Source: Bryobacterales bacterium
GTDB lineage: Bacteria > Acidobacteriota > Terriglobia > Bryobacterales > UBA6623
Direction: 5' to 3'
DNA length: 64,000 nt
Assembly: GCA_965206655.1 (NCBI GenBank)
Contig: CBDBKC010000038.1
Span: 831,430-895,429 of the forward strand
The translations under genes were made by a program, and so were the position numbers. This document shows positions 6,670 to 36,554 of the stretch, piece after piece; within the stretch, counting starts at the first letter, position 1, and the number at the start of each line of letters is the position of its first letter. Below the pieces are notes generated by a model that had not been told where the DNA came from, searched no databases, and was given only the letters and a program-made list of their open reading frames with translations.

Positions 6670-6788
6670 CTGAGGGTCTGTGAAAAAACTGGGGACAGTC
6701 CGCGGCGCGCCGCGTGTGAGCGCTGCGAACAAGGGAGTTACGCGGGCGGCGCTTGGTACAGTCCCCGTTTTTTCACAGACCCTGAGCG
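6670..6788. repeat. MITE-like palindromic element, copy 1 (core GGGGACAGTCC … GGTACAGTCCCC flanked by ctgtgaaaaaa / ttttttcacag)
   Basis: Same ~100 bp element recurs at 32620-32722, 32951-33050, 34210-34318 and 34737-34833. Confidence 0.7.
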
Positions 6789-31129: not shown

Positions 31130-31202
31130 TCGGATATAGCTCAAATGGATAGAGCATCAGGCCATAACCTGACTGTCACGGGTTCGAATCCCGTTATCCG
31201 CC
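31130..31202 (+). pseudogene. Degenerate tRNA-like gene (canonical D- and T-arms, but 6-nt anticodon loop 'ccauaa' and U1·C72 mismatch); possibly a decayed tRNA-Met/Ile2
   Basis: Manual fold: GCUC-AAAUGGAUA-GAGC D-arm, ACGGG-UUCGAAU-CCCGU T-arm, no CCA; anticodon stem UCAGG/CCUGA closes only 6 nt. Confidence 0.35.
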
Positions 31203-32740: not shown

Positions 32741-32816
32741 GCAGGGTTGGTGTAAGCGGGCAGCATGGCGGATTCCAAACCCGCCGGTGGAGGTTCGAGG
32801 CCTTCACCCTGTGCCA
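32741..32816 (+). tRNA. tRNA-Trp (anticodon CCA)
   Basis: Manual cloverleaf: acceptor GCAGGGU/ACCCUGU, G73, encoded CCA, T-loop UUCGAGG; anticodon stem has one mismatch. Confidence 0.65.
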
Positions 32817-32859
32817 GAAGTTTGTGGTCTTTGACAACCGAATAGCCGTAAGAATTCGT

Positions 32860-32934
32860 TGCGGGATAGCTGGAGTGGCTCCAGTCCGGTCTCATAAGCC
32901 GGTAAGGGCGGTTCGATTCCGCCTCCCGCAACCA
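32860..32934 (+). tRNA. tRNA-Met (anticodon CAT; elongator or Ile2-type)
   Basis: Acceptor UGCGGGA/UCCCGCA, anticodon loop CUCAUAA, T-arm GGCGG-UUCGAUU-CCGCC, CCA encoded. Confidence 0.75.
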
Positions 32935-32950
32935 TTTTCGGAACAGGAAG

Positions 32951-33050
32951 GTGTGAAGAAATCGGGACTGTCACAAGCGCGGGCCAAAGCACTCGCCGGT
33001 TCGCAAGCGCTGACTGAAGCGCGGTTGACTGTCCCAGCATTTTTTCGCAC
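32951..33050. repeat. MITE-like palindromic element, copy 3 (diverged)
   Basis: gggactgtc … gactgtccc with aaa/ttttt flanks. Confidence 0.55.
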
Positions 33051-33059
33051 CTTCAAAAT

Positions 33060-33134
33060 GCCGGAGTCGTTCAACAGATAGGACCCTGGGCTTCGAACCC
33101 AGTGATGCGGGTGCAACTCCTGTCTCCGGTTCCA
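33060..33134 (+). tRNA. tRNA-Arg (anticodon TCG), non-canonical D/T loops
   Basis: Acceptor GCCGGAG/CUCCGGU, anticodon arm CUGGG-CUUCGAA-CCCAG, D-loop AACAGAUA (no GG), T-loop UGCAACU (G55), CCA encoded. Confidence 0.6.
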
Positions 33135-33138
33135 GTTT

Positions 33139-33218
33139 GGCCGTGTAGCTCCAATTCGGTAGAGCGTCCGGTTGAAGCCCGGAGCCTTGTGCTGGTTCGA
33201 TTCCAGCCGCGGCCACCA
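33139..33218 (+). tRNA. tRNA-Phe (GAA)
   Basis: Anticodon loop UUGAAGC, canonical T-loop UUCGAUU, A73-CCA; slightly long D and variable loops. Confidence 0.75.
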
Positions 33219-33224
33219 GTTTTC

Positions 33225-33299
33225 CGGCAGGTAGCCCAATGGCAAGGCGCCTGACTGTTAATCAGACCGATGGAGGTTCGAGTCCTCCCCTGCCGGCCA
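33225..33299 (+). tRNA. tRNA-Asn (GTT)
   Basis: Anticodon loop CUGUUAA; T-arm GGAGG-UUCGAGU-CCUCC; CCA encoded. Confidence 0.85.
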
Positions 33300-33312
33300 A
33301 GCAAATTGTCGA

Positions 33313-33389
33313 GGACCTGTAGCCAAGTGGAAAGGCGGCCGGCTGCAACCCGGTCTATGCGTTGGGTTCGATTCCCACCGGGTCCTCCA
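33313..33389 (+). tRNA. tRNA-Cys (GCA)
   Basis: Anticodon arm GCCGG-CUGCAAC-CCGGU; U73; CCA encoded. Confidence 0.8.
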
Positions 33390-33409
33390 ACAGATGTAGA
33401 GAAGATCGT

Positions 33410-33484
33410 TCGGAGATGGTGCAACAGGGAGCACGGGTGGCTTTGACCCATCGAATCCTGGTTCGAGTCCAGGTCTCCGATCCA
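33410..33484 (+). tRNA. tRNA-Gln (TTG)
   Basis: Anticodon loop CUUUGAC; T-arm CCUGG-UUCGAGU-CCAGG; CCA encoded. Confidence 0.8.
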
Positions 33485-33500
33485 AAGTTCGAGGAATCGC

Positions 33501-33578
33501 GGACCGTTGGCGCAGTCCGGCAGTCGCGCTCGGTTGTCAGCCGAGAGGTCGTGGGTTCAAATCCCATACGGTCCGCCA
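33501..33578 (+). tRNA. tRNA-Asp (GTC)
   Basis: Anticodon arm CUCGG-UUGUCAG-CCGAG; G73; CCA encoded. Confidence 0.8.
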
Positions 33579-33779
33579 GAGCTTGGGTGACGGGGAGCGT
33601 GGAGGGGGATCCCAGAAATGCTCAGGGGACGTCGCCCAATTCGATCTGGCTTAGGCGGTCTGGCTGCAATCAACAGATCACCGGCATCATCGGCCTTCGG
33701 CCGAGCTTGGAGATCGCGCACAGCGCGACCCGGCACGGCACAGCCGCGCGCCACAAAGCTTGTCGCGTTTCAGAGTTGA

Positions 33780-33854
33780 GCGTCCTTGGTGTCAACGGCA
33801 GCATGAAAGCCTTCCAAGCTTAGGGTGTCGGTTCAAATCCGACAGGACGCTCCA
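33780..33854 (+). tRNA. tRNA-Gly (TCC)
   Basis: Anticodon loop CUUCCAA, U73, T-arm GUCGG-UUCAAAU-CCGAC, CCA encoded. Confidence 0.7.
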
Positions 33855-33855
33855 T

Positions 33856-33933
33856 CAGGGTGTAGCTCAGTTTGGCCAGAGTTCCCGCCTTGGAAGCGGG
33901 ATGGCGTTGGTTCGAATCCAACCACCCTGACCA
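33856..33933 (+). tRNA. tRNA-Pro (TGG)
   Basis: Anticodon arm CCCGC-CUUGGAA-GCGGG; A73; CCA encoded. Confidence 0.85.
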
Positions 33934-33954
33934 CTTTTGTGGATTCCTAATTGT

Positions 33955-34029
33955 GGGTTCGTAGTTCAACAGCAGAACGGGTGACTTTTAATCATCACAA
34001 TGAGGGTGCGAATCCTTCCGAGCCCACCA
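33955..34029 (+). tRNA. tRNA-Lys (TTT), non-canonical D/T loops
   Basis: D-arm GUUC-AACAGCA-GAAC (no GG), anticodon loop CUUUUAA, T-loop UGCGAAU (G55), CCA encoded. Confidence 0.65.
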
Positions 34030-34030
34030 T

Positions 34031-34106
34031 GGGCCTATAGCTCAATTAGCAGAGCGCCTGCCTTGCAAGCAGGAGGTCGCGAGTGCAACTCCCGCCAGGT
34101 CCACCA
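34031..34106 (+). tRNA. tRNA-Ala (TGC), non-canonical D/T loops
   Basis: G3·U70 present, anticodon arm CCUGC-CUUGCAA-GCAGG, variable AGGUC; D-loop AAUUAGCA (no GG), T-loop UGCAACU (G55). Confidence 0.6.
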
Positions 34107-34117
34107 ACTTTGTTTGT

Positions 34118-34193
34118 AGGTCTATAGCTCAACCGGCAGAGCACCCGGTTCTTACCCGGGAGGTTGGGGGTTCGACGCCCTCTGGGCCTACCA
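34118..34193 (+). tRNA. tRNA-Lys (CTT)
   Basis: Anticodon arm CCCGG-UUCUUAC-CCGGG; canonical UUCGACG T-loop; CCA encoded. Confidence 0.75.
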
Positions 34194-34209
34194 AGTTTCT
34201 TGGAGCTTG

Positions 34210-34318
34210 TGCGAGGGCGAAAAACTGGGGACAGTCCACGGCGCGCCGCTTGCGAATGCGGCAAGCAGAGAAGTGACAGGGGCGGCGCTTGGTACAGTCC
34301 CCGTTTTTCGCGGGTTCG
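34210..34318. repeat. MITE-like palindromic element, copy 4
   Basis: …gaaaaactggggacagtcc…ggtacagtccccgttttt…. Confidence 0.7.
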
Positions 34319-34338
34319 ACGCCCGGCCCACAAAGTTC

Positions 34339-34415
34339 GGCCTTGTAGCCCAACCGGCAGAGGCGGCCGTCTCAAAAGCGGCGCAGTGAAGGTTCGAATC
34401 CTTCCAGGGCCACCA
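34339..34415 (+). tRNA. Class-I (short variable loop) tRNA with anticodon CAA (Leu codon UUG); isotype uncertain
   Basis: Anticodon arm GCCGU-CUCAAAA-GCGGC (perfect), 5-nt variable loop, canonical GAAGG-UUCGAAU-CCUUC T-arm, A73-CCA. Confidence 0.5.
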
Positions 34416-34485
34416 AGGTTTTGGCTGTGATGAAGGGGAGCGGTTGACGGCGGGACCGCTCTCTGACGATTACGGCTCGGTTTTT

Positions 34486-34562
34486 GCCTCGCTGATGGAA
34501 TTGGCATACATACCTGTCTTAGAAACAGGGTCTTCCAGGTTCGACTCCTGGGCGAGGTACCA
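34486..34562 (+). tRNA. Class-I (short variable loop) tRNA with anticodon TAG (Leu codon CUA); isotype uncertain
   Basis: Anticodon arm CCUGU-CUUAGAA-ACAGG (perfect), variable GUCUU, T-arm CCAGG-UUCGACU-CCUGG, A73-CCA. Confidence 0.5.
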
Positions 34563-34571
34563 ATTTGAAGT

Positions 34572-34654
34572 GGGTCGTACCGCGTGGCGCGGAAGCGGGC
34601 TGTAACCCCGCGGCTCGACGAGCACCGCTGGTTCGATTCCAGCACGACCCACCA
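34572..34654 (+). tRNA. tRNA-Tyr (GTA), class II
   Basis: Anticodon arm GCGGG-CUGUAAC-CCCGC, long variable arm GGCUCGACGAGCAC, A73-CCA. Confidence 0.7.
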
Positions 34655-34661
34655 CAGTTTC

Positions 34662-34738
34662 GGGCGTGTAGCTCAACGGAGAAGAGCAGGCGGCTTCTAC
34701 CCGCCCGGCTGGGGGTTCGAATCCTCCCACGCTCGCCA
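34662..34738 (+). tRNA. tRNA-Arg (TCT)
   Basis: Anticodon arm GGCGG-CUUCUAC-CCGCC; G73; CCA encoded. Confidence 0.8.
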
Positions 34739-34833
34739 AGAAAAAAGGGGACAGTCCACTTCGCGCCTCTTGGGGGTCCGGAGACGACCGCTGAGCCTTT
34801 AGGTGGCGCTCGGTACAGTCCCCATTCTTCTTG
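34737..34833. repeat. MITE-like palindromic element, copy 5
   Basis: caagaaaaaaggggacagtcc…ggtacagtccccattcttcttg. Confidence 0.65.
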
Positions 34834-34845
34834 AAGCCAAGAGAT

Positions 34846-34920
34846 TCTGGGTTAGCGTAACGGCAGCGCGGGCCGGCTGTGAACCGGTCGGAGTCAGTTC
34901 GAGTCTGACACCCAGTACCA
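34846..34920 (+). tRNA. tRNA-His (GTG)
   Basis: Anticodon loop CUGUGAA; irregular 5' acceptor end (possible -1 nucleotide) as usual for tRNA-His; CCA encoded. Confidence 0.65.
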
Positions 34921-34921
34921 C

Positions 34922-34997
34922 GGGGCAGTAGTCCAAGCGGATAGGATGCAGGGCTTTCAACCCTGCGATGAGAGTTCGATTCTCTCCTGCCCTGCCA
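34922..34997 (+). tRNA. tRNA-Glu (TTC)
   Basis: Anticodon arm CAGGG-CUUUCAA-CCCUG; G73; CCA encoded. Confidence 0.8.
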
Positions 34998-35002
34998 AGT
35001 CC

Positions 35003-35078
35003 GGGAGCGTAGCTCAGTCAGCAGAGCGTACGTCTGATATGCGTGAGGCCGAAGGTGCAATTCCTTCCGCTCCCACCA
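35003..35078 (+). tRNA. tRNA-Ile (GAT), non-canonical D/T loops
   Basis: Anticodon loop CUGAUAU; D-loop AGUCAGCA (no GG); T-loop UGCAAUU (G55); A73-CCA. Confidence 0.65.
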
Positions 35079-35085
35079 AGTCTGT

Positions 35086-35163
35086 TGCGGGTTAACTCAG
35101 CCGGGTCAGAGTGCCTCTCTTACAAAGAGGAAGTCAGGGGTTCGAGTCCCCTACCCGCTACCA
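35086..35163 (+). tRNA. tRNA-Val (TAC)
   Basis: Anticodon arm CCUCU-CUUACAA-AGAGG; U1·U72 mismatch; CCA encoded. Confidence 0.75.
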
Positions 35164-35167
35164 ATTC

Positions 35168-35176
35168 GCCCTCTTA
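35168..35176 (+). pseudogene. 5' acceptor strand plus positions 8-9 (gccctct-ta) of a tRNA-Thr split by IS630 insertion
   Basis: Complementary to the 3' acceptor AGGGGGC at 36330-36336; TA at 35175-35176 is duplicated at 36273-36274. Confidence 0.5.
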
Positions 35177-36272
35177 CTGAGTCCCGCATAATATTCAGTT
35201 AATCGAACGACAAAGAAGATTGCTTCCAAAAGGCGGCGATCAAGCGCCGTTTGCGGCGCATGCGGCGCAAAGTCGTGCGTGCCCGCTCGTCGAGCTCCCA
35301 GTAGTCGTTGGGGCAGACGTTGGGCAACTCGTGCTGCTTCCAGTAGGCCCAGATGTATTCCACCGGATTCAGCTCCGGGGCGTAGCCCGGCAAGTACTCG
35401 GTCTCGATGTGGCCCTGCGACAACGCGATGAACTCGCGCACCAACGCGCTGCGATGCGCCGGCAAGCGATCCCACACGATCAGCAACGGACGTTGTATGT
35501 GGCGCAGCAGCGCCTTGAGGAAATCGATCACCTCGGGACCGCGGATGGCGTCGGGATAGAGACGGAAATAGAAGTTGTGGAAAGTGATTCCGGCCGCCGC
35601 CGAGAGCTTCTTCCAGTTGAAGTTGAACTGCAGTACGGGCGTCTGCCCGCGCGGCGCCCAAGTACGGCAGCGATGTGGCTTCTGGCTCAGTCCGCTTTCG
35701 TCGATGAAGACGATCGTGCGGCCCTGCTTTTGCGCTTTTTTTTAATGGCGGGCCAAGTCTTCTTCTGCCAAGTCTGAATCGCTTCCTCGTTGCGCTCGCG
35801 GGCCTTGCCGACCGGCCGTTGCGGGCTCCAATGCAGCGCCCGCAGTAGCTTCCAGACGTGGCCTTCGTGGTAGCGCACCCCGAAACGGTCGCGGATCAAC
35901 CGCGCCACCCGCGGACAGCTCCACAGCGGTGTCGGGAAGCCGTGCGCTTCGGGTCCTTCGAGCAGCAGCCCTTCCAGCTCGGCGAGCTGCGCGGCGCTCA
36001 GCAACGGCTTGCGGCCGGCGCGACCGGCTTTGGCTAGCCCGGCTCGGCCGTCTTCGCGGTAACGCTGCACCCAGCCGCTGACGCTTTGTTGGGCGGCTTG
36101 GACTCTACGCGCCGCCTCAGCTTGGCTCAGTCCTTTTTCCACGACCAGCCGCACCGCCTCGATGCACCGCTTCTCCAGCGCCGCAAAGTCTCGCTTCACG
36201 CCTTTTGGAAAACCCATATCCAAAAGACGTCGCTCCATTACAAAAGGTTACCCTATATTATGCGGGACTCAG
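35177..36272 (-). mobile_element. IS630-family insertion sequence (1096 bp) with ~22-bp terminal inverted repeats and a TA target-site duplication
   Basis: Left end ctgagtcccgcataatat… versus right end …atattatgcgggactcag; flanking TA/TA. Confidence 0.8.
35199..36238 (-). CDS. IS630-family DDE transposase encoded in two frames joined by a predicted -1 ribosomal frameshift at A_AAA_AAG (35735-35743)
   Basis: N-terminal HTH ORF 35687..36238 ends …WPAIKKKRKS*. The -1 frame continues …KKAQKQGRTIVFIDESGLSQKPH… into ORF 35199..35531 (DDE region …LPGYAPELNPVE…). Confidence 0.75.
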
Positions 36273-36340
36273 TAGTTCAATGGGAGAACCGCTGTCTTGT
36301 AAACAGCCAATGGGGGTTCGATTCCACCCAGGGGGCTCCA
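36273..36340 (+). pseudogene. 3' portion of tRNA-Thr (TGT) (D-arm through CCA) separated from its 5' acceptor strand by the IS630 insertion
   Basis: ta-GUUC-AAUGGGA-GAAC, anticodon arm GCUGU-CUUGUAA-ACAGC, irregular T-stem, …AGGGGGC-U-CCA. Confidence 0.6.
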
Positions 36341-36350
36341 AGTTCGACGC

Positions 36351-36442
36351 GGAAGGATGGCCGAGTCCGGGAAGGCATTGGCCTGCTACGCCAAGGTGGG
36401 GCCGAAAGGCCCTCGGGGGTTCAAATCCTCCTCCTTCCGCCA
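36351..36442 (+). tRNA. tRNA-Ser (GCT), class II
   Basis: Anticodon arm UUGGC-CUGCUAC-GCCAA, long variable arm, G73-CCA. Confidence 0.85.
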
Positions 36443-36464
36443 AGTTTTGAAACAGCAAGTCTCG

Positions 36465-36554
36465 GGAGAGTTGGCCGAGCGGGAAGGCTCCGGTTTTGAA
36501 AACCGGTGACGTGTCGAGACGCACGCGGGGGTTCGATTCCCTCACTCTCCTCCA
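36465..36554 (+). tRNA. tRNA-Ser (TGA), class II
   Basis: Anticodon arm CCGGU-UUUGAAA-ACCGG, long variable arm, CCA encoded. Confidence 0.8.

Follow-up and report, generated by a model that had tools for sequence, protein, structure and literature searches.

Insertion sequences (ISs) of the IS630/Tc1-mariner family are established to move by cut-and-paste transposition and to duplicate a TA dinucleotide at their target (PMC2170065), with IS630 itself cited as preferring the target CTAG (Tenzen and Ohtsubo 1991, cited in PMC2170065). Programmed frameshifting has been documented for the IS630 family (PMC5009743). The heptamer A_AAA_AAG, as found in dnaX and the IS3 family, is a classical bacterial −1 site, the shiftiness of which has been attributed in Escherichia coli to the sole tRNA-Lys of that organism (PMC5009743). 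Conserved runs of nine or eight As in IS elements have been proposed as transcriptional slippage sites, with the A8 variants read as evidence of productive slippage on eight As, and length conservation of a homopolymer among diverged homologues has been used as a criterion for slippage at the level of expression (PMC1088944). Units of arrayed tRNA genes have also been described (PMC12803027). The locus considered here lies within a 64-kb stretch of a Bryobacterales genome (contig CBDBKC010000038.1 of assembly GCA_965206655.1; hereafter the window). It consists of a 1096-bp IS630-family element inserted at TA 8-9 of a tRNA-Thr(UGU) gene, itself part of a tRNA array conserved in a related species, and the transposase of this element is split into two open reading frames (ORFs) that bear the signature of programmed recoding.

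An IS630-family insertion in tRNA-Thr(UGU)

The IS occupies positions 35177-36272 of the window, with its transposase on the minus strand and a TA on each flank. Its terminal inverted repeats, CTGAGTCCCGCATAATAT, are perfect (18/18 bp) and lie at 35177-35194 (plus strand, transposase-distal end) and 36255-36272 (minus strand, transposase-proximal end); these are the only two matches in the window when up to three mismatches are allowed, against 0.06 expected by chance. To the left stand nucleotides 1-7 of the tRNA, the 5' acceptor strand GCCCTCT (35168-35174, plus strand), followed by the left copy of the TA target-site duplication at tRNA positions 8-9 (35175-35176). To the right, the second TA (36273-36274) is followed by GTTCAATGGG...GGGGGCTCCA up to 36340, comprising the D arm, anticodon arm, T arm, 3' acceptor strand and CCA (36275-36340, plus strand). 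When 35168-35176 and 36275-36340 are rejoined, ARAGORN recognizes a 75-nt tRNA-Thr(TGT), in the fold of which GCCCTCT pairs at seven of seven positions with AGGGGGC (36330-36336), forming an acceptor stem of 7 bp that includes one G-U pair. Taken by itself, the right fragment matches the Rfam tRNA model at 36272-36329 (38.6 bits; gathering score 29), covering model positions 7-64 of 71, as expected of a tRNA without its 5' acceptor strand.

An uninterrupted tRNA-Thr(TGT), which the initial annotation of this locus had proposed seeking in related strains, is present in two independent contigs from two independent samples, L099 (JGI Ga0315335_000496; 118 kb) and L100 (Logan SRR12149292). Both were reached through a 91%-identical homologue (P0121) of the DHDPS-family gene downstream of the IS. 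The window and both contigs share the gene order BNR, AMP-dependent ligase, SDR, Band_7, a 2.7-kb gene-free gap and DHDPS, and in L099 and L100 the gap holds tRNA genes arrayed in the order seen in the window. The intact gene (L099:7633-7707) lies between tRNA-Val(TAC) and tRNA-Ser(GCT), carries a single TA at positions 8-9 and is identical to the joined window fragments at 74 of 75 positions. Its first seven nucleotides (L099:7633-7639) are the GCCCTCT of the window, and L099:7642-7707 matches window 36275-36340 at 65 of 66 positions; the sole difference is an A40-to-G change, which leaves the base pair in the anticodon stem intact as U.G. The arrays as wholes are 87.7% identical, and L099 and L100 therefore derive from a different species, not a sister strain. 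Given an empty site with a single TA, insertion of the IS into tRNA-Thr with duplication of TA is demonstrated. The initial annotation had placed the insertion at this dinucleotide from the left remnant GCCCTCT plus TA and the duplicated TA on the right; both are present at the positions it gave, and its reading is borne out by the rejoined gene and the intact orthologue alike.

The same right junction occurs in an independent Bryobacterales metagenome-assembled genome (MAG), on the GTDB representative contig JAKZVK010000170.1 (L001 = L009), which ends inside the IS and is identical to the window rightwards of it. The first 613 positions of this contig (L001:1-613, equivalent to window 35592-36204) differ from the window at 12 positions, all within the IS part and clustered at 35756-35777, while the other 2.7 kb are identical; the differences probably reflect the collapse of several IS copies at the contig end. 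GTDB genomes were also scanned with a pattern for the D arm and anticodon loop of tRNA-Thr. No empty site was recovered; the hits were the insertion in the Bryobacterales MAG and similar, intact tRNA-Thr genes from unrelated phyla. Exact matches to the flanking DHDPS, Band_7 and SDR proteins lay on short contigs or were lacking, and DHDPS homologues at 80-81% identity have no tRNA array alongside.

The interrupted gene is itself unusual. Both the rejoined gene and its intact orthologue are recognized as a cloverleaf with a TGT anticodon (ARAGORN), yet the tRNA-Thr departs from canonical geometry, with an extra nucleotide and an incompletely paired T stem: an extra C stands between the T stem and the 3' acceptor strand (window 36322-36330), and positions 51 and 63 form a G51.A63 mismatch. 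These features are unusual for a functional tRNA, and eight intact tRNA-Thr(TGT) genes from other phyla that share the D arm lack the extra C. Decay after insertion was considered as their origin and ruled out, as both occur in the intact L099 orthologue and therefore predate the insertion. The initial annotation had further called U8-A9 universally conserved; A9 is indeed common in tRNAs, but G9 stands in one of the eight intact tRNA-Thr genes used for comparison. Other tRNA arrays, in unrelated phyla, also contain tRNA-Thr(TGT) genes with this unusual D arm (GTTCAATGGNAGAAC); they lie in an Omnitrophota MAG with 33 tRNA genes in 3.4 kb (L003:3987-7357) and a Sphingopyxis MAG with at least seven tRNA genes (L010:6645-7210).

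The element belongs to a mobile clade. Metagenome assemblies hold the same 1096-bp element, with 1-2 mismatches, at three further sites (L012 = L015, L013 and L014); each copy is flanked by TA and retains the A8 run discussed below, and all three lie in or beside ordinary protein-coding regions. Since copies differ by only 1-2 bases in 1096, the sequences show recent movement of the element. In relatives, the inverted repeat is conserved as YTGAGTCCCGCATAATAT and element length is 1090-1097 bp (~1094 bp). Among the IS and those relatives with definable ends, 53 of 53 related insertions are flanked by TA and all 53 have a YTAR target, distributed as CTAG (23), TTAG (13), CTAA (10) and TTAA (7). 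The target in the window is TTAG (T7-T8-A9-G10 of the tRNA). CTAG, the classical IS630 hot spot, occurs 40 times in the 64-kb window and was rejected as the target here by the empty-site alignment, in which T7 precedes TA.

A split transposase with a conserved A-run

The transposase is encoded by two overlapping frames on the minus strand. The first, orfA (35687-36238; 183 aa), encodes the helix-turn-helix (HTH) DNA-binding part (Pfam HTH_28, HTH_32 and HTH_33), and the second, orfB (35199-35741), lies in the −1 frame relative to orfA and encodes the DDE catalytic part (Pfam DDE_3). The zero-frame stop of orfA is 17 codons past a run of eight As (T8 on the plus strand, 35736-35743), the longest A/T homopolymer in the window, and the orfB frame opens directly after a TAA that overlaps the start of the run. 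At this point lies the candidate recoding site AAAAAAAAG (35735-35743, minus strand), read in frame 0 as AAA AAA AAG and containing A_AAA_AAG, an X_XXY_YYZ heptamer in the zero frame of orfA within the ORF overlap where the −1 frame opens. A −1 fusion at AAAAAAAAG gives a protein of 346 aa, with the junction ...AIKKK followed by AQKQGRTIVFIDESG..., just as the initial annotation had read it on placing the heptamer at the point of fusion. Against NCBIfam NF033545 ('IS630 family transposase'), the fused protein scores 219.6 bits (cut-off 100) in a single match to model positions 5-298 of 299, and it contains HTH_28, HTH_32 and HTH_33 together with DDE_3 (1.8e-25; residues 176-303), supporting the family assignment made initially. 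The TA duplication, the short terminal inverted repeats and a length within ~1.0-1.4 kb are likewise traits of the family. Candidate catalytic residues, assigned by motif only, are D180 (FIDESG), D257 (VWDR) and E289 (APELNP), with a D-E spacing of 32. All three lie in orfB, leaving orfA without a catalytic residue and orfB without an HTH. All annotated relatives in a plasmid database have less than 60% protein identity, and no named IS could be assigned from it.

Conservation of the split was assessed in 80 related loci from metagenomes (49-97% amino acid identity), of which 73 were assessable at the junction, located by flanking anchors that exclude the A-run itself. A run of at least eight As with −1 geometry is kept in 67 of the 73 (54 with A8 and 13 with A9), one of which (L083) is counted by a slightly offset projection; of the remainder, two keep the geometry with an interrupted run and four are one base shorter with degenerate runs. 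No junction among the 73 is in frame. The phase AAA AAA AAG is kept with an identical 33-nt geometry in 66 relatives, and although 82% of lysine codons near the site are AAG, the site is always AAA AAA AAG. Single-ORF relatives in the protein database have the junction ...WPxIKKKA...GRTIVFIDESG, exactly as in the −1 fusion, and the two for which DNA was fetched (L096 and L097) read TT-A9-G, with one A more. The initial annotation held that the transposase needs a −1 shift, a claim that would have fallen had error correction produced a single ORF. The geometry and A-run are kept in the 67 relatives and in all four near-identical copies, and A8 occurs in five independent contigs; a private mutation and a sequencing error are thereby both excluded as the origin of the tract. 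As the A-run and −1 geometry are retained with no junction in frame, the split is programmed and not damage, at least as judged from this conservation signature of recoding.

In the IS630 family, this junction seems to be a hot spot repeatedly used for recoding, to judge from more distant members. At the homologous junction, a relative on plasmid CP1 of Deinococcus radiodurans carries A9 with +1 geometry (L104:814-950), and one on the megaplasmid of Ralstonia pseudosolanacearum has A8 in a different phase (L105:817-950).

The host tRNA array

The split tRNA-Thr stands among 23 intact tRNA genes on the same strand (32741-36554, plus strand), with counterparts at L099:5306-7921 and L100:91-2595. 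The array covers all 20 amino acids with one or two isoacceptors each, threonine by the split gene only. Every gene encodes CCA and spacers are mostly 1-22 nt. A U34 isoacceptor is present for every four-codon box: Gly TCC, Pro TGG, Ala TGC, Val TAC, Thr TGT, Ser TGA, Leu TAG and Arg TCG. No phage or mobile-element genes were seen in the array flanks examined, and neither the array nor the IS gave a sigma-70-like site in a promoter scan. The transposase gene is oriented against array transcription. On the array strand, a T8 tract after a weak hairpin (35716-35743, plus strand) resembles a terminator and might, speculatively, exert polarity on the two downstream tRNA-Ser genes.

The arrays of the two species differ in several members. 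The anticodon of tRNA-Pro is TGG in the window (33856-33933) and CGG in the related species (L099:6375-6452), and that of a tRNA-Ser is TGA (36465-36554) and CGA (L099:7831-7921), respectively. An extra tRNA-Arg(ACG) is present at L099:7220-7295, where the window has a 107-nt spacer. The gene at 34572-34654 is called tRNA-Tyr(GTA) by ARAGORN, with the anticodon at position 31; its best Rfam match is the tRNA-Sec model (35.6 bits, sub-threshold), ahead of the general tRNA model. Outside the array, between the SDR and Band_7 genes, lies a tRNA-like gene (31130-31202) that matches the Rfam tRNA model with 49.4 bits, has a 6-nt anticodon loop, encodes no CCA and is reported by ARAGORN as 'tRNA-???' with a two-base anticodon. 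This gene is kept at the same place in the related species (L099:3818-3890), where the anticodon loop has 'ag' in place of the 'at' of the window. The long spacers of the array are filled by hairpin repeats of ~75-80 nt, GGGGACAGTCC ... GTACAGTCCCC, frequently flanked by an A-run and a T-run (34227-34302, 34747-34823, a variant at ~32964-33045 and L099:5774-5848), with one occurrence elsewhere in the window (6691-6766). They could be a REP/MITE-like element or terminators.

Explanations and comparison with known systems

Taken together, these observations are explained with an estimated probability of about 0.85 by an IS630/Tc1-mariner IS that entered tRNA-Thr at TA 8-9 through an incidental YTAR target, relies on programmed recoding and disrupted a redundant tRNA. 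The 1096-bp element would have been cut and pasted into TA 8-9 of tRNA-Thr(UGU), duplicating TA, with the YTAR recognition of its clade met by T7-T8-A9-G10. With its 5' acceptor strand split from the other parts of the tRNA, the gene would be inactivated, a loss presumably tolerated with the gene being one of a multi-tRNA array. Standard decoding would yield OrfA alone, the HTH DNA-binding part, which is probably a regulator by analogy with other two-ORF IS elements. In a minority of expression events, a −1 shift at the A8G tract would give the OrfA-DDE fusion, the 346-aa transposase (...AIKKKAQKQGRTIVFIDESG...), either through addition of one A by RNA polymerase on the 8-A run or through ribosomal slippage by −1 on A_AAA_AAG. 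Several observations weigh against this account. The in-frame A9 variants L096 and L097 exist at the DNA level, and folding, by RNAalifold and of single sequences, revealed no stimulatory element that is convincing and conserved, and nothing upstream such as a Shine-Dalgarno-like sequence. The rejoined tRNA is non-canonical, as set out above. ACA codons need a UGU anticodon; another tRNA-Thr(UGU) is therefore presumably encoded elsewhere in the genome.

The route of recoding may be ribosomal −1 slippage, addition of one A by RNA polymerase or both, as an mRNA with one additional A and a ribosomal −1 slip give an identical protein. An exclusively ribosomal mechanism, in which slippage of RNA polymerase is negligible, is a tenable but less probable explanation. 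In its favour, the classical A_AAA_AAG heptamer (PMC5009743) is perfect, lies in frame with orfA and coincides with the opening of the −1 frame, and the AAA AAA AAG phase is kept in 66 relatives. However, the conserved run exceeds what a heptamer needs by 2-3 nt, with A9 in 13 relatives, and its lengths of eight or nine with none in frame follow the pattern expected of transcriptional realignment. RNAalifold recovers only a weak hairpin at ~14 nt downstream, within the segment that codes for the strongly conserved GRTIVFIDESG, and no conserved structure at the usual stimulator spacing of 5-9 nt, though a stimulator is not obligatory for low-level shifting. (The alignment for this folding was chosen on the A8G motif, making its A8G 'invariance' circular; the conservation count comes from the run-excluding anchors.) The array encodes tRNA-Lys(CUU) (34118-34193), which would be expected to lower shiftiness at AAG, extrapolating from PMC5009743. 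Finally, −1 ribosomal slippage cannot serve the junction of the D. radiodurans relative, given its +1 geometry at the same A-run. The longer run, the lack of a detected stimulator, tRNA-Lys(CUU) and this +1 geometry favour a transcriptional contribution, whereas the phase kept in 66 relatives favours the ribosomal route; on balance, transcriptional slippage seems slightly likelier as the main route, and both would be expected to contribute.

Programmed recoding at the level of expression also has to be set against explanations at the DNA level. The A8 copies might be an OFF state, with the ON state an A9 allele produced by replication slippage that moves A8 copies in trans. Such a switch is suggested by L096 and L097, which differ by exactly one A, by the many single-ORF proteins with an IKKKA junction in the protein database and by the proneness of homopolymers to replication slippage (PMC1088944), and it would run counter to the recoding account. 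It is nevertheless unlikely: an in-frame A9 occurs in none of the 73 metagenomic relatives and in none of five contigs of the IS, L096 comes from a low-coverage long-read contig of a type in which homopolymer errors are common, and IS transposases usually prefer to act in cis (PMC5009743). Retention of run length across 50% protein divergence argues instead for slippage during expression. A dead, frameshifted pseudogene or a homopolymer sequencing error would invoke the commonest kind of both mutation and error, a single-base homopolymer difference. This reading is very improbable and appears effectively refuted by the comparison, with A8 shared by the window, L001 and four further contigs that represent three other insertion sites, the run conserved in the 67 of 73 diverged relatives, both ORFs otherwise intact and copies differing at 1-2 of 1096 bases. 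Specific targeting of tRNA genes, as by the integrases of genomic islands, is similarly remote. It would fit U8-A9-R10 reading as TAR in most tRNAs and the ~1.7-fold higher density of YTAR in the array tRNA genes than in the window overall (155 YTAR sites in the window without the IS, eight of them in tRNA genes). Against it, a tRNA is rebuilt at none of the 53 other insertion loci (52 distinct sites), and the three other copies lie in or beside protein-coding regions. With YTAR recognition and no other tRNA site among the 53 loci, the insertion into tRNA-Thr appears incidental, an unremarkable accident of target sequence. A broader joint reading, which is rather unlikely, would make the array a chromosomal accessory decoding set and give the IS clade transposase control at three levels, namely A8/A9 length in DNA, polymerase slippage below the usual 9-nt threshold and ribosomal slippage on the heptamer. 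In the accessory-set part, a conserved and chromosomally inherited set would cover all 20 amino acids, with a U34 isoacceptor for every four-codon box and non-canonical members. If this were true, an IS knock-out of the only threonine tRNA of the array, apparently in two assemblies of the same species, would be a natural experiment, indicating that the accessory tRNA set is dispensable or used only conditionally.

For annotation, the preferred reading of an incidental insertion with a recoded transposase means that the two ORFs are to be described as one recoded IS630-family transposase and not as a pseudogene, and the two tRNA pieces as one disrupted tRNA-Thr(UGU). The IS clade, defined by YTGAGTCCCGCATAATAT ends, a length of ~1094 bp, YTAR targets and an A8-9G junction, is widespread in environmental metagenomes. 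With either route open to the one site, the clade provides a small natural model in which ribosomal and transcriptional slippage can be told apart.

In most respects the IS is ordinary for its family, as are its insertion and its dependence on a frameshift. It resembles IS630 of Shigella sonnei and ISY100 of Synechocystis in its ~1.1-kb length, short inverted repeats, TA duplication and HTH plus DDE architecture (PMC2170065), but these encode their transposase in one ORF, whereas a −1 shift is needed here. IS630 is moreover described as preferring CTAG, while the clade of the window IS accepts YTAR, in this case TTAG. A Roseiflexus IS630-family element similarly restores a split transposase at the level of expression; however, it does so at a T5C5 heteropolymer with an upstream nascent-RNA hairpin and loss of one C (PMC5009743), in contrast to the plain A8 run of the window IS, at which one A would be gained and no conserved upstream hairpin is found. 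The closest likeness in the recoding site is to the A9/A8-run IS elements of D. radiodurans, Nostoc and others (Baranov et al. 2005; PMC1088944), which also carry the A-run in the orfA/orfB overlap and vary between eight and nine As among homologues without indels. The D. radiodurans copy examined, possibly the element of Baranov et al. (2005), has +1 geometry. IS911 and IS150 of the IS3 family and dnaX use the same heptamer, with the IS3 elements sharing the logic of an OrfA regulator and an OrfAB fusion (PMC5009743); these belong to a different transposase family and have defined stimulators (a downstream structure and an upstream Shine-Dalgarno-like element) that were not detected here. More unusual than the IS is the tRNA array, conserved between species in Acidobacteriota. 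Like the arrays of Mycobacterium, cyanobacteria and Firmicutes, it packs more than 20 genes on the same strand and covers all 20 amino acids; it differs from them in being chromosomal, in belonging to Bryobacterales, in its synteny between two species and in having one member disrupted by an IS.

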